A stretch of DNA of 62,080 nucleotides, the filler included, from Stramenopiles sp. TOSAG23-6 (lineage: Eukaryota), in NCBI GenBank assembly GCA_900128565.1. It is 16 parts of 16 records of this genome, joined end to end, with 100 filler letters (N's around TTAATTAATTAA, not from the genome) between each part and the next. Parts side by side here need not be neighbours in the genome. Positions count along the whole stretch, not along the records: positions 15,595 to 19,390 come from LT637375.1; 15 more parts are not named here. One strand, written 5' to 3'. The notes beneath the pieces are model-generated. The model did not search any database. It was not told the origin of the DNA and saw only the letters and a list, made by a program, of their open reading frames with translations. The first letter of the stretch is position 1, and every line of letters begins with the position of its first letter. Made by a program: the position numbers and the translations under genes. Shown piece by piece: positions 2,822-60,718 of this stretch.

Positions 2822-2942
2822 GTATGTTTTATTTTTTTTTTTTTTTCGGTAAAAAAAAAATCGATTTTTTTTTTTTTGGTAAAAAAATTTTGCACCTAAC
2901 AAATTTTTTTAGATTTTTTTGAAATATTTTTCCAAAATATAT

Positions 2943-3800: not shown

Positions 3801-3900
3801 NNNNNNNNNNNNNNNNNNNNNNNNNNNNNNNNNNNNNNNNNNNNTTAATTAATTAANNNNNNNNNNNNNNNNNNNNNNNNNNNNNNNNNNNNNNNNNNNN
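3801..3900. other. Artificial contig linker; others start at 7701, 11598, 15495, 19391, 23283, 27173, 31064, 34951, 38837, 42716, 46595, 50472, 54346, 58214
   Basis: N-run, TTAATTAATTAA (stops in all six frames), N-run, about 100 bp each; contig lengths decrease along the window. Confidence 0.98.
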
Positions 3901-3988: not shown

Positions 3989-6771
3989 ATGTAAGGACTT
4001 CCACATCAGAAGATGCTGAATTTGTTCGAACTGATTTATTAAAAACTGAGATATCAAAACTACCAATTACACTAGGATTGAATAGGCTTGGTGCTGATAC
4101 TTGACTTGAAGAATATTTAGAGTCTTTGTCTATATAGTCTATAGAATGATCTACACTAGAAGATTCAAATGCCGAACTTAAATTTTCTACCAATGGTGGA
4201 TTTATATGAAGACAGTGCCACGTATGAATACTTCCATCTCCGGCCAAATCACGAGAAGAACCATGTATTGTGAAAAAATATTTCGAAAAAAAAACTAAAA
4301 TTTGTTAGGTACAAAATTTCGTACGAAAAAAAAATTGAAATTTTGAAATTGCGAAAACGTACACGAATCATTTGAGGTTTATAATGATTACTACTGTCTG
4401 TAACATCATCATCTTTATAATTATTTACGTTATTTTTCGTATTACTTTGAGTTAAGACTAATATCATATGATTAATAGAATTGATCCATGAACGCGCCTC
4501 ACCGACTGTTTTTGCTCGGAGAGTCAATTTCTTACCATCAATATTCAGCACAAATGTGCCTTTCTTTTTTTCTTCATCTTGGCATGATAAAACACTAGTT
4601 CCTCCACTACCATCTGCAAAATAAACATTTTTTATAGAACCGGATTTTTCTAATAAACGAAGATCAACTTGAGTTTTGGCATACGAAAATATTCCTCCAC
4701 AGTATACTGTAGATTTCGTTAAAGACGCATGAGCCCGAAAGCGAAGTTGACAAAAACGTCGTTCCCAAGTAAGCATCCCATATCGCCAAGATCGTTTCCA
4801 GAGAAAGCCTTTATTCAATATTTGTTCATGTGAAGACGTTTCAACATCTTTTTTCTCTGAGGGAGGACTATGAGACATGGAATTAGGGTTAGGGTTAGGG
4901 TTAGGCCGAAGATTTGTCCCGGATCCAAACCACTTGAAGCGTATACTTATTTTATGATCTAGATCACTTAGATTTTCTGATTTTTTATTTTTTTCTGAAT
5001 TTTTATTTACGTTTACATGCATTTCAATGATACATCGTTCGTAATCTCTACCATTAGCTGATAATTTAAACATCGGTCCTGATATTATTTGTGATTGAAG
5101 AATAGGTACTGAATGCGACATCATCGAATCTATACTATATTTTGTATTACTTTTAATGAGTTTGTTGTAATCATTATATGGTATAGTATGTGTAGTATTT
5201 GGTGATAATCTCGAAGGAATTAAAACACTAAAATATTCTGGCATTTCGTTTTTTTCTCCTTTCATTAGGGTTAGGGTTTTTTTTGTTGGTTGCATTGGCA
5301 TAGAAAAGCGTAACAAAGGAACTAGATCTCTTATTCTTTGTTTTTGTTTTCGTTTCAAAACCGTATGTATTTTGGAAAAATATTTGAAATATTTTTCGTT
5401 AGGTACAAAATTTCGTACGAAAAAAAAACTTCGAATTTGAAAAAAAATAAAACATACATTGGTATCATTATGGACTTCGTTTGCTTCTTTCGATGAAGTT
5501 GTTGAAGAATTATATGTAGGTTGTTTTGTGTGTAGATTATTAGGGTTAGGGTTTCTTTCACTCCATAAATATAAATCAAGAATTGCACCAGGTGGAATTT
5601 TCGAACATGGTAAAACACAATCAAAAGACTGAAAACGGTTACATCCACTTCCTCGAAGATGACTTTCATGAAATCCACAAAACAATTCACCACCATGTAT
5701 TGTGAACAAATATTTTTTTTTTTTTTTTGTAAAATTTGTTAGGTACGGAATTTCGTACGAAAACCAAAAAAAAATCGATTTTTTTGTTTAAAAAAAAAAA
5801 TAAAACATATATATCGAAGTTCAGGTCGAACCATTATTGGATTTTGGATCACTGAATCTGTACCAAATTTTGTACCTAACGAATTTTGTTTTTTTTGGAT
5901 TGAATCTTTTTCTAGAGAGTCATTGCCATCAATACAAGTCACTTTAAAGCAATACGTGTATGTATTATGAAAAAATATTTTTAAAAATTGTTTTGTTATT
6001 AGGTACAAAATTTCGTACGAAAAAAAATAAGCAAAAAATAAATGAAAACGTACATGCATACTCTGTATTATTAATGTCATTTCCTATATCAGATTTTGAT
6101 AATGTTCTATCTCGAGGCATCAACAAACTACTGTCAGAACTACTATCTAAAATATTTGTAGTGACGGATAAATGTGAATTTGTACCAAATTTCGTACTTA
6201 ACGAACTTCGAATTTGCTGAGTGCCAACACCCTTAGAATTACCAAAAAAGTTTCGTTGATGTTTTAACTCCCTCTGAGAAGGAGATGAAGTCATTGTAGT
6301 TTCTGTAGGTGAAGTTCTTGTAGCTTTTCTAGGTGAAGTCATTGTAGCTTTTCTAGGTGAAGTCATTGTAGCTTTTCTAGGTGAAGTTATTGTGGCTTTT
6401 CTAGGTGAAGTTATTGTAGTTTTTCTAGGTGAAGAATATGTTGAAGTAGATAATGGTTTTCGAGGAGAAGATATTTCCGTTTTATCCCAAGAGCTTAAAC
6501 CAGTTTGAGTATTATAGTAATAGACGTTTCCTTTGCCATCATCACAAGGTACCCAGGCCGATTTCAAGCTTGTGCCATTTGTTCCAACAATCCTTGATTT
6601 ACTGGGCTTGGTCCATTGTGACTCTTGTGTTATAGTATTGTACCAATAATCATTATTCTGTTCATCTGTATATTTCACCCATTCTGAGTCAGCATAAGTA
6701 CTCTCACGAGCTGTATTTCTTGGCGATTTTTGGAATCCGTTAGTACTATGCACAGACTCTATCTGATACAT
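3989..6771 (-). CDS. Signalling protein with 2 WW domains, a PI3K-type C2-like region and a PH domain, 3' truncated; introns 5960-6053, 5695-5810, 5365-5457, 4263-4362
   Basis: WVKYTDEQNNDYWYNTITQESQWTKP; WVPCDDGKGNVYYYNTQTGLSSWDK; ELRY|GGELFCG; KGFLWKR..WERRFCQL..EARSWINSI. Confidence 0.78.
6283..6434 (-). repeat. Coding 24-bp tandem repeat (SPRKATxT, about 6 units)
   Basis: AGGTGAAGTCATTGTAGCTTTTCT units on the + strand. Confidence 0.9.
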
Positions 6772-7597: not shown

Positions 7598-8017
7598 GCA
7601 TGTTTTATTTTTATTTTTCAATTTTTTAGCTAAATATGTTTCATACGAAATTTTGTACCTAACAAATTTTTTTAGATTTTTTTTTGAAATATTTTTCCAA
7701 NNNNNNNNNNNNNNNNNNNNNNNNNNNNNNNNNNNNNNNNNNNNTTAATTAATTAANNNNNNNNNNNNNNNNNNNNNNNNNNNNNNNNNNNNNNNNNNNN
7801 AAAATAATGCAAGCAAAATTGGGAAAAATAAAAAAACAATGAAAAAATTAGNAAATAAATTTTATCATGGTATTATTCAAAAAAAACACGATTTTTTTTC
7901 CCCGAAAAAATCTAATTTCAGAATCCCAAAAATTTGAAAGTAATCGTCAAGTAGTACTAGTACTACGTAGTCAAAAAAAACAACCCAACACAGAGTCATC
8001 TTTCATTGAATCATTGA

Positions 8018-9693: not shown

Positions 9694-10549
9694 TTATTCG
9701 TCTAAATCATAATCAATAATATCATTGACGTCTTGCCATGAATATTTTATATAACTTTGTCTCCAATATATTACATTGTCCATGTATTGTGAAAAATGTT
9801 ACTTTGTAGTGCAAAAATTTGTTAGTATAAAATTTTCAGGAAAAAAAAAATAAAAAATCATTTTTGAAAACGTACACCGCATCTCTCATAGCAACTAATG
9901 CATCACTGGCTGGATTGCTTCGTAAGTATTGCTGTAGCGTTGCTATTGCATTATTACCGTTGCCCTTGAAAATGATCCCTGAATCGAATGTCTGAAAAAC
10001 CTTATCAATAGCGTAAAAAAGTGTGTCAGATGGAGGCTTGGCAGGGTAGAAGTTGTCCATCTTGTCGTACACATCCTTAGCCTTGATATATGCATCAAAT
10101 ATTTTGTTGACCTCATCATCAATGAAATTCCTCATTTCTTCTGTGTCTGCACAAGATTCCACTATCCCAAACACGCTTAAAGGACATTTCTCTTGAACTT
10201 TGTTTAAAAGGTCAGGCAATGTTGATCCAGTTACGTCTGTGAGTTGTGCGGCGAGTGGTTGTAGTTCGACATTGAGCGCATCATTTTTTTGTTGCCAATG
10301 TTTCCTATCAAGACGAAACTGTTCTTGTTGTTGTTTTTGTTGTATTTGCCAATCGTTAAACTTACTTCGAAGGTTTCCGACGCGAGTACGTACTACGTCG
10401 GCAGCGGAGTCATACAATTGTTGAATGCGAGCAGAGTTTTCGGGAAGAGATGCTGCTGCGTAAGCAGCAAGAGCAGCAGCAGCTCGTGGAGCATATTGTG
10501 ATGCTAAATTAACAGCTACGGTTGCTGGATCTGAAGTTGCTACTGACAT
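9694..10549 (-). CDS. Hypothetical protein; intron 9782-9875 (GT..AT)
   Basis: Long ORF from ATG; short terminal exon ends in TAA. Confidence 0.55.
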
Positions 10550-15673: not shown

Positions 15674-16245
15674 ATCATTCTTTCATGATCTTTAGATGTT
15701 TTCTGTCGAGGTGGATCAATATATATTTTCCGCCACATCGAAGCTTCTAAAGCAGTTTTTGTATAATTTCTATTTTTTGTATAATTTCTATTTTTATTCT
15801 TGCTAGGGTTAGGGTTATTCGAATATTCTCCTAAAATTTCAGCACATTTTTTATTCTGTGACATCGAGGCTAATGCTATTGGAGTTCTTCCTTGACTATC
15901 TACTATATGTGGACTTACAGCAGATTGTAAAAGAAGTGTCGTTGAGTTTTGCCAACCTTTATAGGCAGCAACATGTATTGTGAAAAAAAAAAAAAATTTT
16001 GTAATTTTTTTTGTTAGGTACAAAATTTCGTACGAAAAAAAAATAAAAATTTTACTCAAAAAAAAAAAAAAAAAATTGAAAATAATGATGAAAATATACA
16101 TGTAATGGTGTTCTTCCTTCCGCATCGGCTAGTTCAAGTGTAACTCCAGCAATATCTGATAAAAGCCCAAGACATTCAACTGTATTGTAAAACAATATTT
16201 TTGTTTTGTTTGTAAAAAACATCGTTAGGTACAAAATTTCATACT

Positions 16246-16276
<31 letters not shown>

Positions 16277-17148
16277 GTAAAAAAAAATTTTTTTTTAAAA
16301 AAAAAAAATCATAATGTCATAATGATAAGATACATGCATCACCATGTGACATGGCTACATGTGCAACATTATTTCCAGCTTCATTCACAACAAATGGATC
16401 AGCCCCATTTATTGTACAAAATATTTCCAGAATTTTTTTTTTGTTAGGTATGAAATTTTGTATGAAAAAAAAAATGTTTTTCAATTTTTTTCAATTTTTT
16501 TCAATTTTGAAAACGTATATTATCAAATAAAATTTCCATTGCTTTTGCATTACCAGAAGCAGCAGCAGCAAATAAATGTTCTGTTAAATCAATAATTTCA
16601 CGAGGTGTGTTATATAGTGTATTGTAGTTGTAGTTATAGTTATTGTGCTGACTAGAATTAGTGTAGTTCTGATGACTGTTGTTTTGATGTTTTTGTTGAT
16701 TTTGTTGATTTTGATGTTTTTTTTGATGATTTTGGTACGGATAGGAGATTTCATTCTGAGTGATTGGTATATGAAAAGAATTCCCAGAGGAGTAACCATG
16801 TCCTAGTGGAGGTGGTGGTGGGACTATAAGGGATTGTGATTGAGATGTTCTTGTTTGGTGACTTCTTTGACTACGTCTAATTAATGTATTTTGTGGTGGA
16901 GGTGGCGGAGGTACAAACGAATTGAAATCTGAACTTGAAAATTTGACGTCTTTTTTCATATTGTTGACAATCTCTTCATCCACGATATTATTATACATAT
17001 TACTATTGGATTTTGGAGTGGTAGAACGAAGCCAGTGAATGGGTAACTCATCCTCTATCGAAGTTTGTTTTGTTTTCTTTTTTGATTTTTTTGACCTTTT
17101 TTGAGATTGTCTTCGTCTCGAACGTCTTGATAATCGACTTCCTATCAT
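15674..17148 (-). CDS. Ankyrin-repeat protein, 3' truncated; introns 16407-16518, 16180-16333, 15973-16099
   Basis: Spliced: LFDN|GADPFVVNEAGNNVAHVA, GRTPLH|VAAYKG, DSQGRTPIALA. Confidence 0.85.
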
Positions 17149-17631
17149 TATTGTTTCTATATATTTATGGAATGACTTTTGAACTTAATTGAAGCACAAC
17201 AATACAACTGGTATTATGGTAAGAACAACTGATATTTTGATATTGTACAATATAGCTAGAAAAAACGAATCAGTGAAAGATGATACAGAAGTTCTACCAA
17301 AAATATACCTATATACCTATAATTTTGTTATTATGTTAAGTATTTATAGCTCGTTCCATAAGACGACGACTTTTGAAACCGTCAAAAATATAAGACATCG
17401 ATCACTTCAATCAGCTACCTAAAGTAAATTCATCAAAAATACGAGTATACTGTATATATACAACACCTACTACATGTCTCTACTATAGTATATATAGATG
17501 TGGACTTGTATTTATCAATGAATGGCTTTGATGTACGCCTTGTTTCTATACATTGAATAATTGAATACACCATTTTGATGTATATAGGCTCCTAATACTA
17601 TTCCTTCCATACCTTCTGATAGTTTTTGGAA

Positions 17632-19286
17632 ATGGATGCAGTATTTATAGGCTCACCAGTGAAAGTCACTGTACCAGCAGGAAAAAAACTAGGTATTGCC
17701 ATACAGCCAGGATGTAGCGATAATACGGGTTGTATTGTACATGCGTTTCGCCCTATATCAAGAGATCACATGGGCCCAATTGAGAGTTCTAACCGAGTCG
17801 TTGTTGGAATGTGGCTCGTAGAAATTAATGGAAAAAGTACAATGACGGAAGACTTCGATTTGATTGTAAACTTGTTGACACAATCAATTAATATTGATCG
17901 CATTCTCTTATTTGATAAGCTTCAGTTACGTGAAAATTTGCATATTACAGACAAGATGACGAATATATTGAATACTAATAGTAATAGTAATAGTAATACT
18001 AATACTAATAGTTATACTAATGGTAATACTAATAGTAATGGTAATACTAATAGTAATACTAAAAGTAATGCTGCGATACATGTAAACATTGATGAAAGTC
18101 ACCAAGTGGCAAAAACTGCATTAATCAGTCATTCAACATACATTGTTTGGGCAACTGCATTTCTTGGTGTGGGTAATTTGGGTGTCCATTTTGAAGTCCA
18201 TGGTGGTTCTTCAAGTTTAGTTGTCATGTTTAATAAAGACAATGAACATCATCTTCATCATCATCATCATCAAGAGGAAGGACATAGTAACCCTAACCCT
18301 AACCCTATAAGTAGTAATCCAAACACTCTTCAAAATATGAAAATATTAAGACATTCAGGTGTACGTACAGGAATGTTTCTAGTTCGAATCGATGATCAAA
18401 ATGTCTCTGAATTATGTAAAACACTTAAAATACCTAAAAAAAATGAAAATTCTAAAAAAATTGAAAATTCTAAAAAAATTGAAAATTCTAAAAAAATTNA
18501 AAATTCTAAAAAAAATGAAAATTCTACCCAAACTAAATCCATTCCGTCATTACAGTGGGTATTACAATTACTAGAAAGTAAAAAAACATCAAACAAAAGA
18601 TTAACTTTTTGTAGTGCTCCAAATGATTTTATTGCTCATGTACGTTTTATATGAATTTCTAATTTATTTCCAAAAAAAGATTTCATACGAAATTTTGTAC
18701 CTAACCAATTTAAAAATTTTTTTTTTGAAATATTTTTCCAAAATACATATTCATTTACAATCGTTTGCATTATCTGAACGAAATGCAATTATCCTAATAC
18801 AAAAATTAGTTCGTGGTATCCTCACTAGAACACGAATTCAAGAGAAAATTTTAGCAGCCCGTCGACAACATCAACTACAAGTATTAAAAAAAAAATGGGC
18901 TACTTATAGTATAGATAAGATAGGACACAAACACGAAATACACGAAATACACGAAATATCTTCTGAATCCAAGGATGTTTCTAAGGATCATCAAAAGAGT
19001 TATACGAAGGATAATGCTATTTGTGGAAACCCTAACCCTAATACACAAAATAGTACAGTATTACATCTACAGAAACATTCCATATCGAATTTGAAAAATA
19101 TTTTTGAGTTCCCTAACCCTAACCCTAATTCAACATCAAATTTGAAAGACATTTTTGAGTGCAGTCATTGTCATTATAAACTGAATCCAAATACTGGATT
19201 ATTTTATAACCCTAACCCTAACCCTCAAATATTGTCCACAAAATTATCAAGAGCTAAACATATATATCAAATGAAACAAAGAAAAT
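17632..19286 (+). CDS. PDZ-like and IQ-motif protein, 3' truncated; intron 18640-18748
   Basis: GKKLGIAI..VGMWLVEING; GNLGVHF..GMFLVRIDD; IQKLVRGILTR. Confidence 0.65.
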
Positions 19287-20275: not shown

Positions 20276-20915
20276 GTGTATATAGTAATGGCAATTCCAA
20301 TTATTTTATCTTGTATAATATTGTGTAATGAATTCTTCAAGAATCGATTAACAATTTGTATTAATTTAATATTTTTGTTATTGGGTTGTTTTATATATAT
20401 GTTATATGTACGTTTTTATACTTTCATTTTTTTTTCAAAATTTTTTAAAAATTTTTTCAATTTTTTTTTTTCATAGTAAATTTTGTACCTAACAAAAAAA
20501 AAAACTTTGTACAATAAATGTACCAACGAAACATTTACAGTATACATCACCAAGATTGAAGCCTACTTTTAATACTTTATATAATTCGGCAGACATTGAT
20601 GAAGAAAATATTTGTTTGTTGCAAAATAGTATAAGTACAATGAGTGACGTCATTCTTGATGAAAACCCTAACCCTACTACTACTACTCAGACAAATTATA
20701 ATGTAAAAAAAAATGTAAAAAAAAATGTAAAAAAAAATGTAAAAAAAACAATAAACTATGGTACACATAACCAATATACAAGTAAACATACAAGTGTAAA
20801 TAATAGACAAAGATTAAAAAGTATGTCTATTACTGGTGATTTAATTGGGGAAAATGATATTTCAATAGAGGAACAAAAAGGAACTTTTCTCCATGAGCTT
20901 CAACAAAACCCCTAA
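20276..20915 (+). CDS. C-terminal fragment of a membrane protein; intron 20408-20519
   Basis: Two hydrophobic helices, then a polar tail; frame continuous over GT..AT. Confidence 0.45.
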
Positions 20916-24058: not shown

Positions 24059-24291
24059 AAGTAGTATGAAAAACTTTTGTATGAAGTTTCATCTTTTTAT
24101 CAATTTCATAAAATTTAGGACTTCGATACTTTTTTACGAGGACTAGTGCATTGTTGATTGATGTACGAGAAAGTAGAATAATTAAAATAATTTTTCTTTT
24201 TTTTCAATTTCGAATTTATTTTCGTACAACATTTCGTACCTAACGATATTGTTTTGAAATATTTTTCCAAAATACATACTCCTATACTCCC

Positions 24292-25778
24292 TTACTTGCC
24301 ACCTTTTATCCAGCGTTGTATCATTCCAAAATAATGATAAAATGGAGTCGAACTCTCTTTACTTTTTGGTTCGTAGGGTTGAGTGTCAGTCAGATAAGGC
24401 ACATATGCAGTTCTACGAATGCTCTCTTTGCCATGAGTTGCCCCTTTCACACGATGCCATAAGCGCCCATCATGGACGGTGACGTCACCCGGGAATGTTG
24501 ACACACAAATTTCCGTCTCTTCATTATCATCATTGCTTATGAAATAAATTTTTCTAAACATGAAACCAAGTAAACTCTGATGATGTTTGTGACAAAATAT
24601 TCTGGAAAAAAAAAACGTTAGGTACGAAATTTCGTACGAAAAAAATATTCTGGAAAAAAAACGTTAGGTACGAAATTTCGTACGAAAAAAAAATATTTGA
24701 AATTTATCATCATGATAATTTACATGAGTCTTTGGTAATAAACAGAGAACAGCATCACCATTAAACTTTGAGACCTTGTCCAAATGAATTCCAAAATTGA
24801 GCATAGGACTTGGACGTCGTAAGTACGCGATATCACGAAGTGCATCTGTGTGCCAGCCTAACATTTTACGAGACCATAAAGAAGATTTATTCGCCTCAGA
24901 GCTGTAATACGCGTTCATAACAACACATGTATTTTGGAAAAATATTTCAAAAAAAATCTAAAAAAATATGTTAGGTACGAAATTTCGTACGAAAAAAACT
25001 GAATTCGATTTTTTTTTTTACCGAAAAAAAAAAAAAAATAAAACATTCCATCTTTCTCAACGTCTCCGATTCGCACTCGAGATCTTGCTTTAGGTAATAC
25101 TTGTAATACGTCAACTTCGCTTATAGAATGATCCAATATTTCTTTCTTTATAGTACTATTTGTACGTGATTTTTCATCATCGTATAAACCAAATGCATCA
25201 ACGACTATATCTTTCACGACATCGAAACGATCATTTCTTATGACATTTCGAACTGAATCGGACAAGGTAGATGTGAAGGGTATGCGGGTCAGACACTTAC
25301 GACCATTTTCACACGTCCCTTGAAATATTGGAACACCCCTAATGGATGTAACATTACGAACCAGTAAATCTTTCTCTATGCGTTGTCTTTCCGACAACAA
25401 TGTTTGAACCTCACTGGCAAGTAGAGCTCTCTCAAAACGAATGAATCCGTAGTATCTAAAAAATGATAACTGTTTGGATGTCAAGGAAGCTTCTAAATGA
25501 AAGACAGTGTCAACCGGAGGTATCTTCCCGGGGTTTATTTCTAAACCATATGTTGCGGCAAATCTAGCTTTTAGATCATTTTCATCGTATGGTGCAGTAT
25601 AATGTTTCTCATAGACATGAATCACGTGGGGTGTGATTGAACAGCCTAGTATTATAATGGTAAGCAAAGCAAGAGCACAAAACATAATACATTTAAGTGA
25701 AAACCATATCGCATTGACAAACGGTAAGTGCGGCTGCATATCTGCATTTTTCACTTTCAAAATTTTATTTGAGCTCAT
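24292..25778 (-). CDS. PhyH-like 2OG-Fe(II) dioxygenase with N-terminal TM; introns 24927-25048, 24583-24723
   Basis: GFIRFERAL, GWHTDALRD, LPKTH|HQ, PGDVTVHDGRLWHR (HxD..H triad). Confidence 0.82.
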
Positions 25779-26188
25779 GATTTTTCATCTAGCGTGTGAT
25801 AGCTTCTTGTTTGTGTAAGTTCGTATGTTTCTGCCTGACTTATGCCAAAATTGCTATTATAATTTTTAGGTATTCAAAAAATAGGGATATAAATGTGACT
25901 GTCATGACAGAGAAAATTGCTAGGGTTAGGGCTCGGGCTCTGGAAAAAAAATCCAAAAAAAAAATTGAAATCTTTTGCGCATGTTCTTTCGCTTTAAATA
26001 GTTCACTTGAAGGATTTTAGATTACTCGTATATAAATAGTGGGGTTTCAGATTCTTTTGTATAGTTAGTAATACAGTAATTATCTTGTTACAAGGCACTA
26101 GAAGCTTCTTAAAGTAGTGAACAGTAAAAATTGGTGGAAAAATAGTATATAATAGTACAAAATAGTTTTCTCATCGTATAGAGTACGG

Positions 26189-29126: not shown

Positions 29127-30991
29127 ATGGACACCGGCGATACGGTTGGATTGTATAAAGAGGATGATGCCGATCATTTCGACGTTAGTGTTGATTTTGA
29201 TACTGACGAAAAAAAAGATGATCCCGTTGGCACTGACGACTGGGACCAGAAGAAAATGCGAGTCACTTCTTCTGGACGTGACATTACTGTAAGTTCAGCT
29301 GCGTCTCGCCGTCGGGAAATAGCTGTATATATTGTTAAACAAGCAAAGGATAAAAGTATTGAATGTAAAGAACGGAGATTAGTAGCAGAAGAAGAACTTA
29401 GACTTATGAGAATTGAAGCATTTGAAAAAACTCGTGCTGCTGCTGACGAAGTTAATAATGCCGAGTCACAGGTCGCTGAGTTTGAGCGTTCTCTCGAGTT
29501 AGCTCGAACACGGCTTGAGGAAGCGAATACTGCAAAAAGCATAGTTGCAAAAAAGTATCCTGAATTTGTAAGTACTCTTGTTTCAGCGCTTGATGTGCGA
29601 GTAAAGGATGAAGAAGAAGCCATTGAAGCTCTTCAAAAGGCTCAGGAAAATGAAGAAGAAGCGATCTATGAATTGTGTCAGGCTGCTGCCACGGAAGTAG
29701 CTGCTGAACAGATTCGAGAAGAAAATAAGCGTCTTAAAGAAGCCGAAGACTTTGAGAAATGGGAAGAGCAGTGTGCAGAAGACCGTGAAAATATGTACGT
29801 TTTCATCATACATTTCGAATTTCTTTCTTTTTTATTATGAAAATTTTGTACCTAACGATTTTTTTTTTTAAATATTTTTTCACTGTACATACATCCTACA
29901 AAGTGGTCCCCCAAACAGATTGGTGTCTTTATCAGTGAATTCCAACTTCCAAATAACAAACAGGTTCGTGCTAACTTTGAAAGTGCTGCTGAGGAGTCCG
30001 ATGGGCGTTGGATAAAATTATTAAAATTTGCTTCAGATGAGTCAAACAAACAGATTGACAGTATTTTGGCTGATCTTGGTATTACAAATGTTTTTCATCA
30101 GTTACGTATGCGTCGTAGACTCTCAGAACTAGTAAGTACTCGAACAAATGGAAAAACGCCAGGCCTGGTAAAAAGTAATTCGCCAAGACATTCATCAAAG
30201 TTTCAGAAAAAGAAAAGAGAACAAAATAAGCACATGTCTTTGGCTATGACAAGGGCTAATGCTACTGCAGCAGCAATTAATAAAGCCTCAAATGCTGCTG
30301 CGGCAAATGTCGAGGCACAGGATAATAGGATTCGATCTAAAGTTTTACGATATTCAATCATGGCAATGTACGTTTTCAAAATTGGATTTCAGTTTTTTTT
30401 TTCATACGAAATTTTGTAATTAACGAATATTTTAAAACCAAAAAAAAAATATTTTTTCACAATGAGTGGATGAGCTTGACAAGAATAATAATGGTTTGGC
30501 TGGGTTTCGAAATAAGGGTAGACTTGGAATCGGCTGGGGATCTAAGTACAAGTCTTTTCGTGCTTCATGTATGTTTTATTTTTTTTCAAATTTCTAATTT
30601 ATTTTCGTACGAAATTTTGTACCTAACAAATTTTAGGTTTTTTTTTTTGAAATATTTTTCCAAAATACATCAGTCTCGCCTAAAAATAGAAAACATGAAA
30701 ATATACGTGGGAAGAACAATCGAAGAAAAATGAAAACTAGTCAGTCTCTACCGTCAATGTCCCTGAAGAAATATTTAAATCGTGACACTACTATTGATAC
30801 TGAATCCTGGAAATCACCTGGTGATGATAGAATGAATGGTGAAAATTCAGTAGGTACGAAAATTAGTACACTATCAAAGAAACAACAAACTACTACAACA
30901 GTTTCTTATGCGCCACAAAATACAAATAGAATCGATAGAAAATCTTCAGACACTAAGCCACCACGGAGACGGGGGAGGTCGAATACTGTAT
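29127..30991 (+). CDS. Coiled-coil and SAM-like domain protein, 3' truncated; introns 29795-29890, 30368-30467, 30569-30670
   Basis: HPTKWSPKQIGVFI..LADLGITNVFHQLRMRRRL; frames join after element removal. Confidence 0.6.
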
Positions 30992-31163: not shown

Positions 31164-34100
31164 AATAATGAAAATAATGAAAATAATGAAAATAATGAAA
31201 ATAATGAAAATAATGAAAATAATGAAAAAGACACAATGTGGCTTGAGAATGAAAATTCAAATCAATCACAAAATTCACAGGCATCCATTGTTATTGAAGA
31301 TTTGCTTCATTGGATTTCTCAAAATCAAACTCCTGCAGAACAATCCCAGGAAAAAAAATATACACAGTTAAATGTAAAAAATAATACAATACATAAAAGT
31401 AGTAAGGAGGCTAGTGTCCATAGTACGTTAGTGAATGCTTTTTTTACCTACATTTTTTTTTATAGTCAATTTCGTACCTAACAAAACTTTTAAAAATTTA
31501 AGAAAAATATTTTTTTACCTAAATTTTTTTTGTAGTCAATTTCATACCTAACAAATTATATATATATATATATATATTTCACAATAGACCTCGCAGATGG
31601 TAGTGAAAGTGATGGTTCTTGTATAGATGAACTAAGTGATGATGACGTCAATATACATGTACGTTTTTTCCTCATCAATGTTTTTTTCAATTTCGAAGTT
31701 TTTTTTTATACGAAATTTTGTACCTAACAAAATTTTTTTTTTTTTTTGAAAAATCGTTTTGTTTTTTTTGAATCAAATTCGAGTTTTTTTTTCAAACATT
31801 TTCATCCTACACTGTGTAGTACTTAACAATTTTCAAATGTATTATATTGTTTCACAAAATATACAAATTTCACGCCACTTCATTCACAAACGTCTTTCAC
31901 AATGACACAAACATCTCAAAACGATAATATATTCAATACGAAAATTCTAGATCCTACTACCCCTAACCCTAGGATTAACCCTAACCCTACAACACCTACA
32001 CATAGGAAAAAAATATCCTTGGAATTATTGAACCCTAGCCCTGACAACAATTCAAATCAAATATATCCTACAATTCCTAAAACTCCGAAAGAATATCACC
32101 GTGAAAAAAAACGAAGAAGAAAACTAGAAGAAAGTTCTATAAGTTGGAGTATTTTAGAATCTCAATATGTCGAAGAATCATCTCAGATGAAACAAAATAT
32201 GGATATAGACCCTAACCCTAACCCTATAAATGATAACACTAATGCTCATGTAGAAGAATCATCTCAGATGAAACAAAATATGGATATAAACCCTAACCCT
32301 AATCAAAATATGGATATAGAGCGTGTTCATCCAACTATAAATGATACTACCATTGTCAATATAGAAGATATAGTTAATATAAAAACTTCAAAACAAAATA
32401 TGGATATAGAGCATGTTCATCCAACTATAAATCCTACTACGGATTATGTAAAACAAACAAATGTAAAAACACGAAATCAAAAAAATAGTCGAAAGAGACG
32501 TTTTATACAAAAAAAAAAAAAGTATAATCCAAGTGATGAAACAGAGCATTCTACCCCTAACCCTAACCCTAACCCAAATAAACGTGTTTGTGTTGACTCC
32601 TCGTCTGATTTTTGTATACCATCTATACATCAAAAACATGAAAATTCTAAAACCTCATTTCATTGTACTGATTCAATACACCTTAAAAAAAAACAAAAAA
32701 AACAAAAAAAACAAAATAATTTTACAATATAAAAAAATAGCACCGTCAATTCAGTCCTTATTATCATCTCGATTTTGTCCAAAAATGGATGAAACTGTAC
32801 AGAATGGAGCATTTTATAGTAAGTATAAAGATATTCCAATAGCGCCATATCGATTTGGAGGTTTCACACATCATCTCCCTTTTGATGTTGAACAAACATC
32901 ACAATTAAAGCCATTTCGACCTACTTTACTTTCCCCTAACCCTAAAAATGTTATAACTGAAAACATAAAAAACATAAAAAACATAAAAAACATAAAAAAC
33001 ATAAAAAACATAAAAAATTGCCCTAACCCTAAACATGGTGTAGCTGAAAACATAAAAAACATAAAAAATAGCCCTACTACCCCTACACATGAGGCTCTAA
33101 TCAATACGATACATTCTACAAATTTCACACGAAATATTCATGTCAAGAATAATACACAAAATAAACAAAACAAACAACATGAAAAAAATGTATGTTTTAC
33201 TTTTTTTTTCAATTTCGAATTTATTTTTTCATACGAAATTTTGTACCTAACGAATTTTTTTTGAAATATTTTTCCAAAATACAGATACATTATGATTTTG
33301 AATATGTAAATGTAAATAATTCAATACGAGATTATGTTATACTTGAACCTTCTATGCAACCTCCGTCAATTGAAATTGTGAATTGTTGGATGAATCAAAA
33401 CCCTAACCCTAACCCCATCAAACTACCACTGGAAAGGTCAATAATACAATCAAAGAAACAATTTTTAAAATGTACACATAAAACTGAACTAGATAGACAT
33501 GGTAGGCGTTTACCCGTACAAATATATCGGAATAAGAGCCGAGATTCGCAAATTTCAGAAGAATCGAGAACACCTGCATCACTGCAGACAACACAATCGA
33601 GTTCATCTAGTCGTGATCTTTCTAATGATCTTTCTAATGATCTTTCTAATGATCTTACTAATGATCTTTCTAAGACAACACAATCGAGTTCATCTAGTCG
33701 TGATCTTACTAATGATCTTTCTAATGATCTTTCTAATGATCTTACTAATGATCTTACTAATGATCTTTCTAATGATCTTTCTAATGATCTTTCTAATGAT
33801 CTTTCTAGTGATCTTTCTAATGATCTTTCTAATGATCTTTCTAATGATCTTTCTAATGATCATAATCATTATAATGATTGTAATGATTTTAAATCTTCAT
33901 TTCCGAATACATCCCAAGTGAATTCCCAAGATAAAAACACGAATTCTCAAGATATACAAAATTCATTACGCATGAAATTTGGTAGGAAATTAGATACGGA
34001 TTCAATGGACAATAAAAAAAATACTAGGGTTAGGGTTTCACGTCTTGATAAATATGTCGTAGTATTAAGTATAGAATTGTTATGTGCTACTCGCAATGAA

Positions 34101-34873
34101 TTATCCCCAAATTCTAATAATGATGAAATTATTGCTATTTGTTATTGTATACATACGTTTTATTTTTTTTACAAAAAAAACGAATTTTTTTTTTCGTACG
34201 AAATTTCGTACCTAACAAATTTAAGTTTTTTTTTTTGAAATATTTTTCCAAAATACACATACTTGCGGAGATAATTCTAAAAATGATACAATAGGTGTCA
34301 TTGCTGTAATAAAGAATATAAATCTTGAAAAAAATCACACGCCAAAACAATCATGTAGGTCTCCAAAATTGAATTTCTAATTTTTTTTTTTTTTTTGAAT
34401 TTTTTTTTCTTTGTAAATTTTGTACTTAACAAAAAAAAATCAAAATTTTGAAAAAATATTTTTTCATCATGTATATTTAGGTCTAGTTGATCCAACAATA
34501 GAATTGACGGTCGTTCCAACAGAAACATTACTATTAGAAGAGTTTATTAAATTAGTTCAAAAAGTAGATCCTGATATAATCGTAGGGTATGACTTAGTAA
34601 GAAGATCTTTAGGTTATATGTATGTTTTATTTTTTTTCAAATTCGATTTGTTTTTTTCGTACGAAATTTTGTACCTAACGATTTTTTTTCTGAAATATTT
34701 TTCCAAAATACATTTTATCAAGAGCATCAATTGTAGAAGATCAGTCCCCTAACCCTAATAAAGAGTCTACATCATATAACCCTAACCCAAACGAGAAAAA
34801 ACATTCCACAAAAATGATATCCTCGCTCTCACGAGTTCCTTTCGCTCCTGCCCACCAACGTGTGAATAATGAT
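31164..34873 (+). CDS. REV3: DNA polymerase zeta catalytic subunit, internal multi-exon fragment
   Basis: LSIELLCATRNELSPNSNNDEIIAICY; ETLLLEEFIKLVQKVDPDIIVGYDL..SLGYI|LSRA; LSRVP; upstream exon boundaries partly uncertain. Confidence 0.82.
33614..33860 (+). repeat. Coding 12-bp tandem repeat (DLSN)n in the REV3 linker
   Basis: GATCTTTCTAAT units. Confidence 0.93.
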
Positions 34874-35050
34874 GAATGTTTTATTTATTTTTTTAACAAA
34901 AAAATCGAATTTTTTTTTTCGTACGAAATTTTGTACCTAACAATTTTTTTNNNNNNNNNNNNNNNNNNNNNNNNNNNNNNNNNNNNNNNNNNNNTTAATT
35001 AATTAANNNNNNNNNNNNNNNNNNNNNNNNNNNNNNNNNNNNNNNNNNNN

Positions 35051-35347
35051 TACAGTAGTCTTGGCCTGTAGGAATAAAGAGAAGGCTGAAAAAGCAATCG
35101 AAGATATAAAAGATGAACTCAGAAAAGTATCAGCAATTCGAGGCAGAGAAATCGTCGAAAGATTACATTTTCTTTCTCTTGACTTGAGTGACTTAAAAAG
35201 TGTTGGTATATTTGCACAGAAGTTTTTAAAAGTATTTGGTCAATTGACTGTGTTAGTAAATAATGCAGGTCATAATATATCTGGAAGAACTAGTCAAGGT
35301 TTGCCATTAATACTCGGTGTTAACTTCGTTGGACACTTTCATCTTAC
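35051..35347 (+). CDS. SDR (retinol dehydrogenase-like) fragment
   Basis: VVLACRN, LDLSDLKSV, LVNNAG, GVNFVGHFHLT. Confidence 0.85.
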
Positions 35348-35438
35348 GTATGATTTATTTTTTTTCAAATTCGAATTTTTTTTCATACGAAATTTTGTAC
35401 CTAACAATTGTTTTTTGAAATATTTTCCCAAAATATAT

Positions 35439-36681
35439 TTGCTTATACTGTTGTTCTACTTATTTACGTCCCAGGTGCAGTGTTTGGATATATTGCATGT
35501 GGCGATTCTACAATTGATGATATTTTGGCTATTCCAGAAAAAGGTCATTATTGCTTTGCGAGCGATCCTTATCACCTTATTGAAATCTCCCAATGTTTGT
35601 TTTCATGATTCATTTGAAAATTCATTTGAAAATTCGATTTTTTTTTCGTACGAAATTTTGTACCTAACAAAAAAACATTTTGAAATATTTTTTCACAAGA
35701 TATGTATGATTGCTATCGCAGGTTTGTGTTGTTATCCATTGAACCATTTTCCAGGCAGGTCTGCGACTTTTAATATATTATTTAAAGAAAGGACGGATGT
35801 ACGTTTTTTCACTACATCTTTTNTNCTTTTTTTTTTTTTTTTTTTNTAGAAAATTGTTCACCAAACAAATTTTAAATTTTTTTGAAATATTTTCCAAAAT
35901 TATATCCACCTTTAGGACCACCGTGGCTTAGATTTGCCTTTCGGCAGAGATTTAAAATCGAGGCTATTATTTTTGTGAGTGTCACGACGTTTCTAGCTAT
36001 TAGCGTTCATAATATATCTTTAGTTTTTGAATTACTCGGTGCAACGTGTGCATGTACGTTTCATCATATATTTACTTTTTCTTTTTTCGTACGAAATTTT
36101 GTACCTAACGATTTTTTTTACTAAAACAAATATTTATTCACAATACATGTACTTTAATGTTTATTTTCCCTGCATTGATTTGCTGGCGACTTGGAAGATC
36201 TGAAGTTTCAGGTACTCAAATTTTCACAAATTCGCAAAATATAGAAGTTGGTTCTAGATTTAGATCATGTATGTTTTCATCATGAATTTCAAATTTATTT
36301 TTTTGGTACCAAATTTTATACCTAACGATTTTTTTTTACAAAAAAAAATATATTCTTTTCAATACATTCCATTCTGAGGAACATTTTCGTGACTCCATTC
36401 AAAATGTAAATGAAATAGAAAATTCTTTTGATGCCGATGGTGATACTATTGATGTGTCTGTTCGTATATGGTGGCATGCTCCAATACCATGTACGTTTTC
36501 ATTATGAATTTCAAATTTATTTATTTTTGTACAAAATTTTATACCTAACGAATTTCAAATGTAACATTTTTTTTACAATACATACGTCACTATATTCTAT
36601 TTATTTTTGGGTGTGGTACTTCTTGTATGTGGTACAACATCAAGTATTATTGATATTGTTAACAAATTAAAACATGCTTAA
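35439..36681 (+). CDS. SLC38/AAAP amino-acid transporter, C-terminal part; introns 35595-35703, 35799-35905, 36054-36148, 36269-36367, 36491-36583
   Basis: GAVFGYIACGDSTIDDIL, YPLNHFPGR, LLGATCA|CTLMFIFPAL; five consecutive GT..AT junctions keep the frame to the stop. Confidence 0.85.
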
Positions 36682-40217: not shown

Positions 40218-42522
40218 ATGGACGGAGTGTACGAAGGTGGTGAGTATCATACAGAACAATTACGTTGTTGTCAACGTTTAGGCCATTGGACAGAAGTAGA
40301 GGATGGTCCTGATGAAGGAACACGAGTTTTTATTCCTGGAGATGATAATGTTATAGGCGCTTTACGAGATATTCAAAGGTATCTCCGACGTGATAATCCA
40401 GCCCAACGTAATTTCTATCGAACTCTAGGTAAATGGAAAGTTGTCCAGACCAAGTTACTTCCTCTTGTATTACATCGTCGTGATGATCCAACTTTACTAT
40501 TTCAAGCAACAAAACTTTTAGTTATGGTAACCATGCCATTAACACCGGAACAAGATCAAGATGTTGAAAACGCATTTATTGAATCTGAATTATTGGTCGA
40601 ATATGTTGAAGCGTGTATATATTATTTTCATCATTTTTTTTTTTTCATTTTTTTTTTTCATAGAAAATTTCGTACCTAACCAATTTTTTTTTTTCAATTT
40701 TTTTTCACTCTATATGGCTTAAACAAGATATGATTGCTGTATTTTCTACAATGCTTGAAGGGCCTCTGTCTAGAATAGCTTCTCTTCACAATAATCCAAA
40801 TGCAAAAGTACCAAAACATGATCAAATGGTACTTGAATTGGTATTAACTTTATTTCGTAATTTACTGAATGTAGTCAATGTACAACGACATGTACGTTTT
40901 TCAAATTATTTTTTTTTTTTTCAAATTTTTTTTTAATACAAAATTTTGTACCTAAACAAAAAAACACAATTTTTTTTTTCAAAATTTTTTTTCAAAATTT
41001 TTTTTTAACCCATTTTGAATATTTTTATTTTTTTCACACAATACAGGCAGCAACAGCTTTGTCACATCGGTTAAATATACGTGAAAAATTAATTCAAAGA
41101 TACCACAAAGAAGATGTCATTAATTGTATTCTTTTATTTGTTGGTAATATTGACATACCTGCTTTAAAAGATTTCAATATGCTTGCGTTAGAATTAATGC
41201 ATTTATTATTTCGTGGTTTCGATCCTAAATTTCTCATTGAAATTCATAAATTACAAAATCCACAAAAAAATAAAAATGGTAAACATTCGAAATATGCACA
41301 ATCTCCATCAAGCTGTGCATATACAGTCAATGATCCAAATGATCCATTACATAAAAGTATGGTAGATGATAGAATTTTACAGAAATCAAAACGAAGTGCA
41401 ATGTATGTTTTATTTGTTTTTGATTTCTCAATATTTTGGGATATTTAGGGATATTTAGGGTTAGGGTTAGGGTTCTATATATATATTTTTTCATAGACAA
41501 TTTCATACCTAACGTTTTTTTTTTATTTTGTAAAATTCGTGTTTTTTCACAATATAGGAGTAGTCGACATTCACGATTTGGTGGTACGATGCGTATGAAA
41601 AGTGTTGGTGGCCAAAGTAGACGACAATTGGTTCATAACGCATGGAGTGATACATCAAGTAGTATGGATAAGACAGCAGCAGCGACGCGTGGAGCTTCAA
41701 AACAACAAAGGTTGATTCAATCTGAATGTGGAATTTCAGCTGATTTATTAGGATTTGGAAAAACTCCAAAAAAAAATTTTGCAGCAGTTTTGTGTGAAAC
41801 ATCAGAATTATTTATTGATACTTGTTATGGTCCATGTACTTTTGTAAATGTTTAATTTTTTTTCATTTTTTTTTTTCATTTTTTTTTTTCATTTTTTTAC
41901 AAAAAAGTTAAAATTTTTTTTTTTTTTCAAAATATTGTACCTAACAAAAAAATTTCATTTACAATATTTCTTCTCAGTCTATTAATCGCATCTCTACGTA
42001 AGGCATTTGCTACAAGTGAAGGGTATCTACCCAGTGATGAGTTATATTTACAACATTTAATTTGGTATTGTTCACGCTATCAGAGATATCGCTCTTTACA
42101 CGAAATCAAAATGTGGCAAAAAAAAAAAAAAAAAATGAAATTGAAAAATTCAGAAAAAAATGTCGGTTTTAATATTGGCACTTTGGGATGTACAATGCAA
42201 AAATGGATATTTAAGTGGTTAACTCGAGCATCTGAGAGATTTGGTGGTATTGGTGCAGATGAGAATAGATTGCATGTAGGTTAAAAATGTATCCTTTAAA
42301 AAAAATTGAAATTTTTTTTTCCTACGAAAATCTATACCTAACAAAAAAAAAAAAATGAAAAATTTAAAAAATATTTTTGTACAAATACATGTGTCTCCCG
42401 GTTCACTTGTTATAAGTGGTTGTGCACTCTCTGAAGTCATTATATTATTACAAGAAATGGTATACTCTACATGTGATACTGTTCGTGAAGCAGGTATGCG
42501 CTTACAAAAAGATGTTTTTTAT
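40218..42522 (+). CDS. TIMELESS: TIMELESS/Tof1 family protein, 3' truncated; introns 40615-40715, 40892-41046, 41403-41557, 41836-41982, 42276-42390
   Basis: LRDIQRYLRRD, LLVMVTMP, LTLFRNLL, SRHSRFGG, CYGPLIAS, QKDVFY. Confidence 0.88.
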
Positions 42523-49596: not shown

Positions 49597-50444
49597 ATGG
49601 AAAAGCAATCAATTTCTCGACGTAAACAATCAAGACCAGTAAAGAAACACAAACTTTATGCTCCTTCTACTCGTTCATCATCAGCATCTGCAGTAGCTAT
49701 ATTAGCCCTACAAGGATTGCGGTCTGGTATGGAAGACGTGTATGACATTGTCGAAGATGACTCCGTCTCAAATTTATCAGAAGTTGGTGCAAAGTATTAT
49801 GCAGTGTATGATGGTCATGGAGGTAGACTTGCTGCTGAATTTTGTTCCAAACATCTTTTACAAACAATAGTAAGTCAACCTGAATTCGTCAAGGAAGCCA
49901 ACAATTCAACTAGTTTTTATACTAATTCTGCTAAACACTCAAAAAACACAAAAAACACAAAAAAGCGAAAAAGAAATTCGAAACAAGATGAAACCAATTA
50001 CAACCAAAATTACTTTTTCCGTGCAGTGACGAGAGGCTTCTTAGAAGTTGATCAAAAGTTTTGTGAACTAGCTACACAAGAACAACTCGTTGATGGTACA
50101 ACGGCAACGTCAGCTTTTGTATTTAATAGTCATATCGTTGTTGCAAACGTGGGTGATTCAAGAGCCATTTTAGTCAAAAATAATGGTCAAGTACGTTTTC
50201 AATTTTTTTTTCATTTTTTTTTTCGTACGAAATTTCGTACCTAACAATTTTTTTTTTTTTTTTTTGAAATATTTTTTCATACTACAAGTGAAATGCCTCT
50301 CTACTGATCACAAACCTGAAACTGAAGGAGAGACTGAACGTATCATCAAAATGGGAGGTACAGTGACGTATAAAAATGGTATTTCACGTGTTAGTTCAAT
50401 GCTTGCGATTACACGCGCTGTTGGTGATGCAGAATTGAAACCAT
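49597..50444 (+). CDS. Protein phosphatase 2C, 3' truncated; intron 50191-50287 (GT..AA)
   Basis: QGLRSGMED, AVYDGHGG, DGTTA, ANVGDSRA, LSTDHKP, LAITRAVGD. Confidence 0.94.
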
Positions 50445-50624
50445 GTACGTTTTGTTTTGACATTTTGAAAGNNNNNNNNNNNNNNNNNNNNNNNNNNNNN
50501 NNNNNNNNNNNNNNNTTAATTAATTAANNNNNNNNNNNNNNNNNNNNNNNNNNNNNNNNNNNNNNNNNNNNACGAAATTTTGTACCTAACGATTTTTTTT
50601 TTGAAATATTTTTCCAAAATACGT

Positions 50625-59496: not shown

Positions 59497-60718
59497 ATGC
59501 AACATGAAATATTGCTGGCCCTTTTGGGTCACTCTGGCGAAGTGATTGTTGATCATGGAAACACCAAGGGTTTCAAAGTAGTTTCAAACTTACCTTTTCT
59601 CGCGACATCTGACCAAGAACTGATCAACCGCATTGTTAAGTGCGGGTGGCATTTCCGTGAACTAACACAGTTTATTAAATGTAACCGCGAGTATGAAAGA
59701 GGTATACCTGTTTCAGGACTATATTTGAGAGCATTTTGTGTGGGTTTAGAAAGTGTTTTGGATGACTATCGTAAGTTAATTGTTGCAGCAGAAGAAACTT
59801 TCCTGGAGGAATCTGAGCTCCCAATTGTAAAGTTATATCAACTTCTTCACGACTATAGTGTCATATTACCGGCACTTCACCGCATCATAAAACAACTAAA
59901 GAAAGATAAAATAAAGGGCCTCCAAATAGTAAATCTCTTGCACAAGGAATCTATGTGTGGATTTCCAATTTTTGAGACATGCATGGTTCGTTTGCTAGGA
60001 GGATGTCTTGGCGTCCTTTTTAACCAAATTCTTGCTTGGTGTGTGCACGGTATTCTTGTTGATAACTACGGAGAATTTTTTATTATGGAGCGACATGGTC
60101 CACCATCTCGGTCTAATGCTCCAGATGCACTTGTTGCTGAACATGAGTGGACAGCCAGTTTTAAAATTCGTTATACAATGGTGTACGTTTTCATCAATTT
60201 TTTCCCCTATATTTTGTTTCGTACGAAATTTTGTACCTAACGAATTTTTATCAAAAAAAATCCCAAATTACATGCCACACGATTTTCTGCCTACTTCAGT
60301 TGCCGAACACGTATTATTCATCGGCAAAGCTGTTCGCGTTTTAAAACGTTGTGGAAACACATCAACACCTCAAAACCGTCAAAATATGCCATCGAATGTA
60401 AATGAGACATCTACTTTATCCATTGAAGATGAAATGAAATTTACAAAAGTGCTACTAAAGCTTCGGTCTGATGCTGCTCTCTCCAATTCAAACTCTAAAA
60501 GTCTTTTTGACACTAGTATGAAGAGTAAGAATGATGCGCAACTCAATGTATTGCAAATTGAACATACTGTTGAAGCACTCCGAGTATCCATTGCAAAAAA
60601 ATTGCTTCACTTGGTTGTAAAAGACGCCGAATTGTTTCGAGTCCTCGCCTTAATTCGGCAATATTTTCTTTTGGGAGATGGTCATTTTTATCAAGAGTTC
60701 GTATCCAGTAGTCGAAGT
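59497..60718 (+). CDS. TUBGCP4: Gamma-tubulin complex component 4, partial; intron 60183-60273
   Basis: MQHEILLALLGHSG, GLYLRAFCVGL, DNYGEFFI, VAEHVLFIGKAV, YFLLGDGHFYQEF. Confidence 0.88.

Follow-up and report, generated by a model that had tools for sequence, protein, structure and literature searches.

A putative family of transposon-like introns dominated by GT-AT termini in Stramenopiles sp. TOSAG23-6

Introduction

How can an intron be recognised and removed when neither of its end dinucleotides is the expected one? The GT...AG rule is nearly universal, and its few large exceptions, those of Fritillaria and Amoebophrya, are the main handles on why it holds. The question is raised here by positions 16407-16518 (minus strand) of a 62,080-nucleotide stretch of DNA from Stramenopiles sp. 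TOSAG23-6 (GenBank assembly GCA_900128565.1), which we refer to as the window. At this locus a candidate intron of 112 nucleotides (nt) that reads AT...AT interrupts an ankyrin-like gene. An earlier note on the same DNA had proposed that introns of this kind have relaxed donors (AT, GA, or GC) and that their cut points are ambiguous by 2 nt. We find it probable that the flagged stretch is a U2-type-looking spliceosomal intron from a repeated, sense-oriented, transposon-like ("introner-like") family, the members of which would still be removed when their ends vary. We infer the relaxation of the donors, the removal from RNA, the use of the major spliceosome, and the mechanism of tolerance from open frames in the DNA and from protein homology.

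Results

Removal of the flagged intron restores an ankyrin-like frame

A profile hidden Markov model was built from 17 clear copies of the element and the window was searched with nhmmer, which recovered the flagged intron with an E value of 5.5e-07 over model positions 3-100. Read on the minus strand, this copy is gataat|ATACGTTTTC...CCTAAC...TACAATAAAT|ggggct, that is, ATACGT...ATAAAT. The upstream exon (16519-17184, minus strand) offers 222 open codons in phase 0, contains the first ankyrin-like repeat, and ends FAAAASGNAKAMEILFDN, and the downstream exon GADPFVVNEAGNNVAHVAMSHGDA (16334-16406, minus strand) begins exactly at the G-x-D-P turn of an ankyrin repeat. Excision of 16407-16518 leaves the open frame ...AMEILFDN|GADPFVVNEAG..., restoring the LFDN|GADPF that the earlier note had read at this point, and the joined protein around the junction is ...EHLFAAAASGNAKAMEILFDN|GADPFVVNEAGNNVAHVAMSHGD.... 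The product contains EHLFAAAASGNAKAMEILFDNGADPFVVNEAGN, then NVAHVAMSHGD..., with the repeats 33 residues apart, which is the ankyrin period; GRTPLHVAAYKG and GRTPIALAS follow as further repeats. Two more family copies on the minus strand interrupt the same gene. The next intron, 16180-16333 (at|GTATCT...ATACAG), is GT..AG in the family register, and excision of the third, 15973-16099 (at|GTATAT...ATACAT), restores TPLH|VAAYKG.

The same messenger RNA (mRNA) would be obtained from the flagged copy in registers 0 to -3 (AT..AT, TA..AA, AT..AA, and AA..TA), none of which starts with G at +1 or ends with AG. The only canonical GT..AG cuts that stay in frame would remove 8 or 21 residues and destroy the 33-residue spacing, and no register consistent with the ankyrin repeats starts with GT. 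In an alignment with two BARD1 ankyrin repeats, exon 2 matched their G-x-D-P turn beginning with its very first residue, a weak match (E 0.08). A protein search with the ankyrin exon found no homologue, and a PDB search with the end of the first ankyrin exon gave a chance match only. The A at position -3 of the flagged copy is also present in the GT-starting copy 20408-20519, and no compensating change was seen between position +1 and the 3' end. Judged by frame and repeat period, the flagged copy is the firmest candidate for a non-GT start.

The flagged intron belongs to a sense-oriented family closed mostly by AT

The nhmmer search of the 62 kb returned 96 matches at E ≤ 1 and 60 at E < 0.001, and the motif ATGTAYGTTTT occurs 29 times in the window compared to 0.21 expected. 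Family introns are near-identical, with a median length of 106 nt, and are spread over unrelated genes of one genome, their hosts including ankyrin-like, PP2C, GCP, Timeless, DEAD-box, and WW/PH proteins. The 5' part of a member consists of [at]GTAYGTTTT(A/C), a T-run, CAAATTCGAA, a further T-run, and TTTCGTACGAAATTTTGTACCTAAC; the 3' part consists of a T-rich stretch and then GAAATATTTTT(CCAAAATAC or TCACAATAC)AT. Its recognisable parts are the long 5' motif GTAYGTTTT, the short hairpin GTACGA-AATT-TTGTAC, a CCTAAC that resembles a branch site and lies some 40 nt ahead of the 3' end, and TTYCAMAATACAT, which is conserved as a 3' motif. The 5' consensus is well kept at every position (G 42/45, T 44/45, A 42/45, Y 43/45, G 41/45, T 43/45). 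Of 45 copies, 44 carry CCTAAC or a sequence close to it, at 27-49 nt from the 3' end (median 40.5; 44 copies). A GTRNGT-like 5' consensus and a CTRAY branch site upstream of the 3' end, as in U2-type introns, are thereby both found.

Termini were scored in the family register in the 43 copies with both ends readable inside one contig. GT-AT accounted for 30 copies, GT-AG for 6, and AT-AT for 2, while GA-AT, GT-GT, AT-AC, GT-AA, and GT-TT were seen once each. Including 15 copies with a 5' end only, owing to a contig end or to a 3' end that was not fixed, the 58 starts were GT in 52 cases, AT in 3, GA in 2, and GC in 1; including 5 copies with a 3' end only, the 48 ends were AT in 36, AG in 6, GT in 2, AC in 2, AA in 1, and TT in 1. 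The junctions of four copies whose 3' ends are not fixed (at 20005, 40892, 530, and 46814) were dropped. AT closes 33 of the 43 full copies and AG only 6; the terminal AG of U2-type introns is mostly not kept.

In 39 of the 43 copies the element strand is the coding strand of the open reading frames (ORFs) on both sides, and in the same 39 the longest flanking open frames fit a cut at the family-homologous ends. The exceptions to this fit are 2822-2942, 24163-24277, 35348-35438, and 61978-62069, the last at the window end; 24163-24277 and 61978-62069 are without ORF support on one side, and their junctions were dropped as well. Full-length antisense copies were absent from the nhmmer matches, which held antisense core fragments only. 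An AT precedes the intron and also forms its last two bases, resembling a 2-bp target duplication, and the inverted ends amount to only about 6 bp (ATGTAT/ATACAT). Such inverted ends with flanking AT repeats resemble a cut-and-paste element, and it could be supposed that the elements are not introns at all, being eliminated from the DNA in the manner of the internal eliminated sequences of ciliates, or that the genes are unexpressed. The orientation bias is what removal from RNA would produce, not removal from DNA; the copies also bear a 5' splice-site consensus and a branch-like CTAAC, and six of them are ordinary GT-AG introns. We consider removal at the DNA level, or residence in unexpressed genes, extremely unlikely.

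Two antisense core fragments, 5859-5914 (+) and 6179-6211 (+), lie in exons of a minus-strand WW/PH gene, where the frame is open and reads SLGTKFGT[DN]S; they may be old insertions turned coding. A search of metagenome contigs with the core pattern found one locus (L001), on the minus strand of which, at about 560-665, an ordinary at|GTATGT...CACAATACAT|gg (..ATACAT) copy stands in an ORF. The same contig also carries degenerate telomere-like repeats further on. The core pattern was found neither in the genome contigs nor in the viral contigs.

Other copies start with AT, GA, or GC

The AT-starting copy in the WW/PH-domain gene, ATATGT...ATACAT (5695-5810, minus strand; cgatat|..|ggtggt), restores LRY|GGEL upon removal, as had been claimed for it, and the exon phases need its length for the chain to stay in phase; its registers 0, -1, and -2 are equivalent (AT..AT, TA..CA, and AT..AC). 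Removal of the GA-starting copy GAATGT...ATACAT (24927-25048, minus strand; aagatg|..|gtgttg) gives EKDG|VVMN. The copy ATACGT...ATACAC (34153-34258, plus strand) has AT..AC ends when read in the family register, which is no proof of an A start, since a 6-nt direct repeat, ACATAC, creates seven registers with the same mRNA, one of which is GT..AC. A second GA-starting copy (34874-34950, plus strand; at|GAATGTTTTA...) and the GC-starting copy (7598-7700, plus strand; at|GCATGTTTTA...) are truncated by contig ends and have no 3' end, so that both are putative introns known by their starts. All sequences quoted in the earlier note were found in place, including GAATGT at 34874 and GCATGT at 7598. 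Its proposal of relaxed donors stands insofar as 6 of 58 starts are non-GT in otherwise complete copies with intact frames; GC, seen in a truncated copy, is a candidate donor.

Could the non-GT starts be unused, as consensus or assembly errors or as alleles of dead genes, with all functional copies starting with GT? In favour of this, the assembly is in fragments and contains single-N calls, two loci have probably been mis-joined through one family copy, and 2 of the 6 variant copies are truncated by contig ends. Against this, six changes in 116 bases (the first two positions of 58 ends) would lie far above the usual consensus error rate, and long conserved ORFs are intact, for example a PEP carboxylase-like ORF of 986 codons. 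The variant-bearing genes keep their frames open on both sides in the needed phase, and over its whole length the gene that holds the GA copy is conserved in relatives of 36-46% identity. We regard it as improbable that the variant starts are errors or relics.

The register that starts with GT is favoured over one 2 nt upstream

Cutting 2 nt upstream gives an identical mRNA in 29 of 43 copies, so the ambiguity pointed out in the earlier note is real; in 29 of 43 the intron is preceded by the same dinucleotide with which it ends, mostly AT and once each AA, AC, and AG. An alternative is therefore that the true unit lies 2 nt upstream, forming AT...AC introns (ATGTAYGT...ATAC) of the U12 type or the U2-type AT-AC class, in which an A(+1)/C(-1) pair would explain the missing AG. 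Parker and Siliciano reportedly showed in 1993 that this pair is workable. In the shifted register the GT-, TT-, and AG-ending copies at 50624, 52992, and 33284 would all end ..ATAC, and 5695-5810 would become a textbook AT..AC intron.

The two registers predict different proteins at 24927-25048, where the GT register gives EKDG and the shifted AT..AC register EKEC. A search of a representative library with the exon upstream of this copy gave 92 matches, and seven of these, P0001 and six more distant relatives, were aligned with both alternative spliced products. All six relatives outside this organism that span the junction (P0003, P0004, P0005, P0006, P0008, and P0009) read GD.EKDG[VL]V.N.Y. 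Since the homologues read EKDG, the removed unit at this copy should be GA..AT (or AA..TG by a 1-nt slip), in agreement with the junction proposed earlier.

The ends themselves were also better conserved in the GT register, in which the consensus letter was present at the four end positions in 158 of 172 cases compared to 140 of 172 in the shifted register (Fisher p = 0.0066). An AT-AC intron would close with C, a base found there in only 28 of 43 copies. Exons resume with G after the final AT in 21 of 43 copies, compared to 16.5% G in the window; such a bias commonly follows 3' splice sites, and an element target preference (C-AT-G) would look alike. Six members are plain GT-AG introns starting from the same GTAYGT. 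GTAYGT is a common U2-type 5' consensus in protists and fungi, and ATGTAY is a poor match to a 5' splice site.

Signals of the minor spliceosome were not seen at the family ends. The U12-type 5' motif RTATCCTT is found at 0 of 58 family 5' ends, as the earlier note had said of the donors, and its 6 matches in the window against 4.49 expected are at chance level. A U12 branch site TCCTTAAC close to the 3' end is not what the family has; U12 branch sites lie closer to the 3' end than the 27-49 nt that separate CCTAAC from it here. One perfect U12-type 5' motif, GTATCCTT, occurs at 42289-42296 (+), 14 nt inside the family intron 42276-42390, and is probably there by chance.

Elsewhere the registers differ less tellingly. 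They give CGT (Arg) or CAT (His) at the gt|GT..AT copy 4263-4362 (minus strand), GTG or ATG at the gt|GT..AT copy 9782-9875 (minus strand), Val or Met at the gt|GT..AT copy 60183-60273 (plus strand) of a gamma-tubulin-complex gene, and CGG (Arg) or CAT (His) at the gg|GT..AT copy 52580-52660 (plus strand). With the codon of the GT register given first, they also part at 41403-41557 (ATG or AGG), 30368-30467 (ATG or GTG), 33190-33284 (AAT or AAG), 16180-16333 (TTT or GTT), and 188-301 (GAT or GAG). At 52992, 50624, and 40615 the codons are synonymous under both registers, and for the A-starting and TT-ending copies, which the earlier note had taken to fit the shifted register, both registers lead to the same mRNA or to a synonymous codon. 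Together, the EKDG junction, the kept end letters, the G after the intron, and the GTAYGT consensus favour the GT register, toward which the earlier note had leaned on the strength of the drift to AG and the DG junction, and make an AT...AC family unlikely.

The 3' site appears to follow the end of the element

In the GT register, the 3' ends raise a question of their own, namely how a site is chosen that mostly lacks AG. Downstream of CCTAAC, 12 of 44 copies contain one or more AGs that are skipped before the 3' end is reached. This suggests that the family 3' site is not located by AG scanning. In the gene that holds the GA copy, homologues keep TH-x-Q-x at the GT..AT copy 24583-24723 (minus strand), as expected of a GT..AT splice; an AG 6 nt downstream, taken by the public model P0001, deletes two residues. 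P0001 is 99% identical to this gene (24292-25784, minus strand) and forces AG acceptors, with 32 conserved residues lost at one family intron and 2 at the next.

At the GT..GT copy 30368-30467 (plus strand), which ends CACAATGAGT (..GAGT), a three-exon chain is in phase only with the family length, and a cut at the AG that lies 1 nt ahead of the family end would run at once into a stop codon. The GT..TT copy 52830-52992 (plus strand) ends CACCATACTT (..ACTT), where the registers give ACA or ACT, which are synonymous. Excision of the GT..AA copy of a PP2C gene (50191-50287, plus strand), which has AA on both sides, is contiguous on PP2C structures, and that of 60183-60273 is contiguous in the Pfam GCP_N_terminal profile (positions 223 and 227) and in two homologues. 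A 3' half-copy ending ..ATACGT (50572-50624, plus strand) stands at a contig start, followed by a 2OG-Fe(II)-oxygenase-like ORF. What had been taken as one intron, 50445-50624, is a 5' half-intron of the PP2C gene, a spacer, and a 3' half-intron of the oxygenase-like gene; because these halves come from different genes, the end at 50624 is backed only by frame on its 3' side. The odd acceptors that the earlier note had deduced from frame, ..GAGT at 30467, ..ACGT at 50624, and ..ACTT at 52992, are all present in the DNA, the second of them outside any whole intron.

The copy 2822-2942 (plus strand) departs from this pattern and is weighed below. With its shortened cut, the frame reads SAEY-IYRYGR, which resembles DEAD-box motif VI; a PDB search of the ORF after 2937 found no match. 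The 3' site seems to be tied to the terminal ..AT of the element, not to AG, and not to be absolutely rigid.

Observations that weigh against this reading

Several of our observations speak against a family of introns cut at homologous, often non-canonical ends in the GT register. Only one junction, 24927-25048, separates the registers strongly; at 60183-60273, where the choice is between Val and Met, the two GCP homologues have Leu and are uninformative, and a search among longer proteins with the Timeless exon, which has a Met/Arg junction at 41403-41557, found no homologue. In 2822-2942 the longest downstream ORF seems to require that the 3' cut fall at 2938, 4 nt short of the family end and again behind an AT; since this cut lies upstream of the homologous end, the 3' site is not rigidly fixed. 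The Pfam ankyrin matches of the last exon fall below curated cut-offs (24.4 compared to 27.3 bits, and 21.6 compared to 22.7), and with these sub-threshold scores and the weak BARD1 alignment the ankyrin assignment rests on the repeat pattern as much as on scores. RNA folding of five copies gave no significant structure (z -0.05 to -1.29): a 7-bp end-to-end helix was present in two ordinary copies and absent from the flagged copy, and a 6-bp hairpin lay directly before CCTAAC in 5 of 5. The assembly is fragmentary (16 contigs, single-N calls, one probable mis-join), so consensus quality near repeats is not guaranteed. Finally, a cut displaced by 4 nt ("+4") is to be weighed at two junctions. 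At 24927-25048 (GTTTTA...GTGT) it yields EKDGIVMN, which is compatible with the homologues' V or L; at the flagged copy (GTTTTC...GGGG) it keeps the 33-residue spacing and is disfavoured only by the change of GA to IP at the conserved ankyrin turn.

Such a displacement would amount to rescue by the second GT of the motif (GTAY|GT...), with both cuts moved 4 nt downstream, so that the 3' cut would fall inside the next exon. The same-length shift starts with GT in 4 of the 4 two-ended variant copies, and it leaves the mRNA of 34153-34258 identical. It would, however, need a concerted 4-nt move of the 3' cut, and we know of no such shift; the resulting 3' ends (TG, GG, GT, and AC) share no motif. 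At the flagged copy, the altered G-A lies in exon 2, whose first G aligns to the BARD1 G-x-D-P turn. Rescue by the second GT is very unlikely in our judgement, and cutting at the family-homologous ends remains the reading that we prefer.

Genomic context of the family

The window is AT-rich, gene-dense eukaryotic DNA (GC 0.27-0.42). It is composed of 16 contigs of about 3.8 kb each, ordered by falling length and separated by spacers of the form N44-TTAATTAATTAA-N44 (3801-3900, 7701-7800, and then about every 3.9 kb). Half of the inner contig ends (15/30) fall within family introns, a pattern that breakage of the assembly at a high-copy repeat would produce. Three sequencing runs held small shares of the region's words (0.15, 0.12, and 0.07), and an Rfam scan of the window matched no family.

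The probable mis-join runs through the family copy 35348-35438. In 35051-35703 an SDR-like exon (Pfam adh_short) is followed by this copy and then by amino-acid-transporter-like exons with unfit phases, and in a PDB search of the SDR-like exon the alignments end before the junction. Two loci have probably been mis-joined here through the repeat. The Thr/Ile junction of this copy was set aside because its two sides are different genes with phases that do not fit.

Telomere-type repeats, (TTAGGG)2 with at most 1 mismatch, occur at 40 places in the window compared to 0.08 expected, for example at 4883-4906, 19111-19128, 32555-32578, and 41455-41472, and one such run sits within the intron 41403-41557. 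Runs of NPNPNP are frequent in the proteins of the window and are what the complement of the TTAGGG repeat would encode.

Discussion

The flagged intron is best considered together with its relatives. We propose that the removed unit would extend from the G of GTAYGT to the final AT, and that the cut points would be found through extended motifs carried by the element and not through the terminal dinucleotides. Copies with mutated first bases (G to A, or GA and GC) could then still be cut at the homologous positions, and the same would apply to copies with mutated last bases (AG, GT, TT, AA, and AC). An A at +1 might be tolerated because the last base is U and not G, which we put forward as an idea only. 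A more specific version, tentative and in our view rather doubtful, is that the major spliceosome has been re-tuned to the transposon-borne signal: extended motifs would set both cuts, the second step would take G(+1)/U(-1) in place of G/G, and neither terminal dinucleotide would be essential. If this were true, splicing of copies with A(+1)/U(-1) and A(+1)/C(-1) would imply a wider rule for matching the first and last bases. Either way, the introns of this organism seem to depend less on their end letters than introns usually do.

The present analysis adds the homologue test of the register and of the GA start, the ankyrin-period argument for the A start, and the lists of equivalent registers; three of the copies that it had cited are recognised as cut by contig joins. 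There are practical consequences as well. Predicted proteomes of this organism are likely to be wrong at family sites, given that P0001 forces AG acceptors and loses 34 residues, and surveys of transposon-derived introns that are built on annotated introns would miss the family. A family with a normal-looking 5' motif and branch site, AT ends, and A, GA, or GC starts would be a third natural experiment beside Fritillaria and Amoebophrya, and a cleaner one, its copies amounting to mutants of one intron placed in different genes.

Neither a GT-AT intron family nor this element was described in the literature that our search covered, and in the searched text of the report on single-cell genomes of uncultured stramenopiles (PMC5778133) introns are mentioned only in the methods. 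The closest relatives in kind are the introner elements, transposon-derived intron families of Micromonas, Aureococcus, and many other eukaryotes, of which there are surveys (bioRxiv 10.1101/2022.06.06.494994; PMC12130899). With these the family shares near-identical short introns in unrelated genes, sense orientation, and an assembly that breaks at the copies. To these may be added the short inverted ends and the putative direct repeat at the flank, from which part of the splice site would come. It differs in its termini: introners are as a rule GT-AG, as PMC7789003 states for Aureococcus, whereas here GT-AT makes up 30 of 43 and non-GT starts 6 of 58. According to PMC12130899, introner surveys begin from annotated introns and keep unfamiliar splice sites only with RNA support.

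A second comparison is offered by Amoebophrya (Syndiniales), in which repeated non-canonical introns and introner elements have been described by Farhat et al. 2021 (PMC7789003). These introns have an inverted repeat at each end, border-overlapping short direct repeats that make the exact cut ambiguous, and non-GT/AG termini, and signs of the minor spliceosome are absent, as in the present family. Amoebophrya introns have no dominant dinucleotide pair, inverted repeats of 8-20 nt that form hairpins, and direct repeats of 3-5 nt. The stramenopile family, in contrast, has GT-AT as its dominant pair, a direct repeat of 2 nt, and no significant folding, and it has kept both CTAAC and a 5' consensus like that of yeast.

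Two further systems bear on the loss of the terminal dinucleotides. Henriet et al. are said to have described non-canonical U2-type introns of Fritillaria borealis in 2019. PMC13326754 reports for this animal mostly non-GT/AG introns, a conserved major spliceosome without U12, and divergent U2AF paralogues that recognise non-AG 3' ends. Such paralogues would be one candidate mechanism for the present family too. Fewer than 10% of its introns are GT/AG by that account, unlike the stramenopile family, which has other termini, mostly keeps GT, and has mainly AG replaced. In U12-type and U2-type AT-AC introns, A starts depend on a matching last base, and the shifted register of our family would itself be AT-AC. 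The family departs from them in having RTATCCTT at 0 of 58 starts, a branch-like motif far from the 3' end, and a shifted register that fails the EKDG test. By its sequence features, the family would belong with the transposon-like, non-canonical U2-type introns, of which it appears to be a GT-AT-dominated form.

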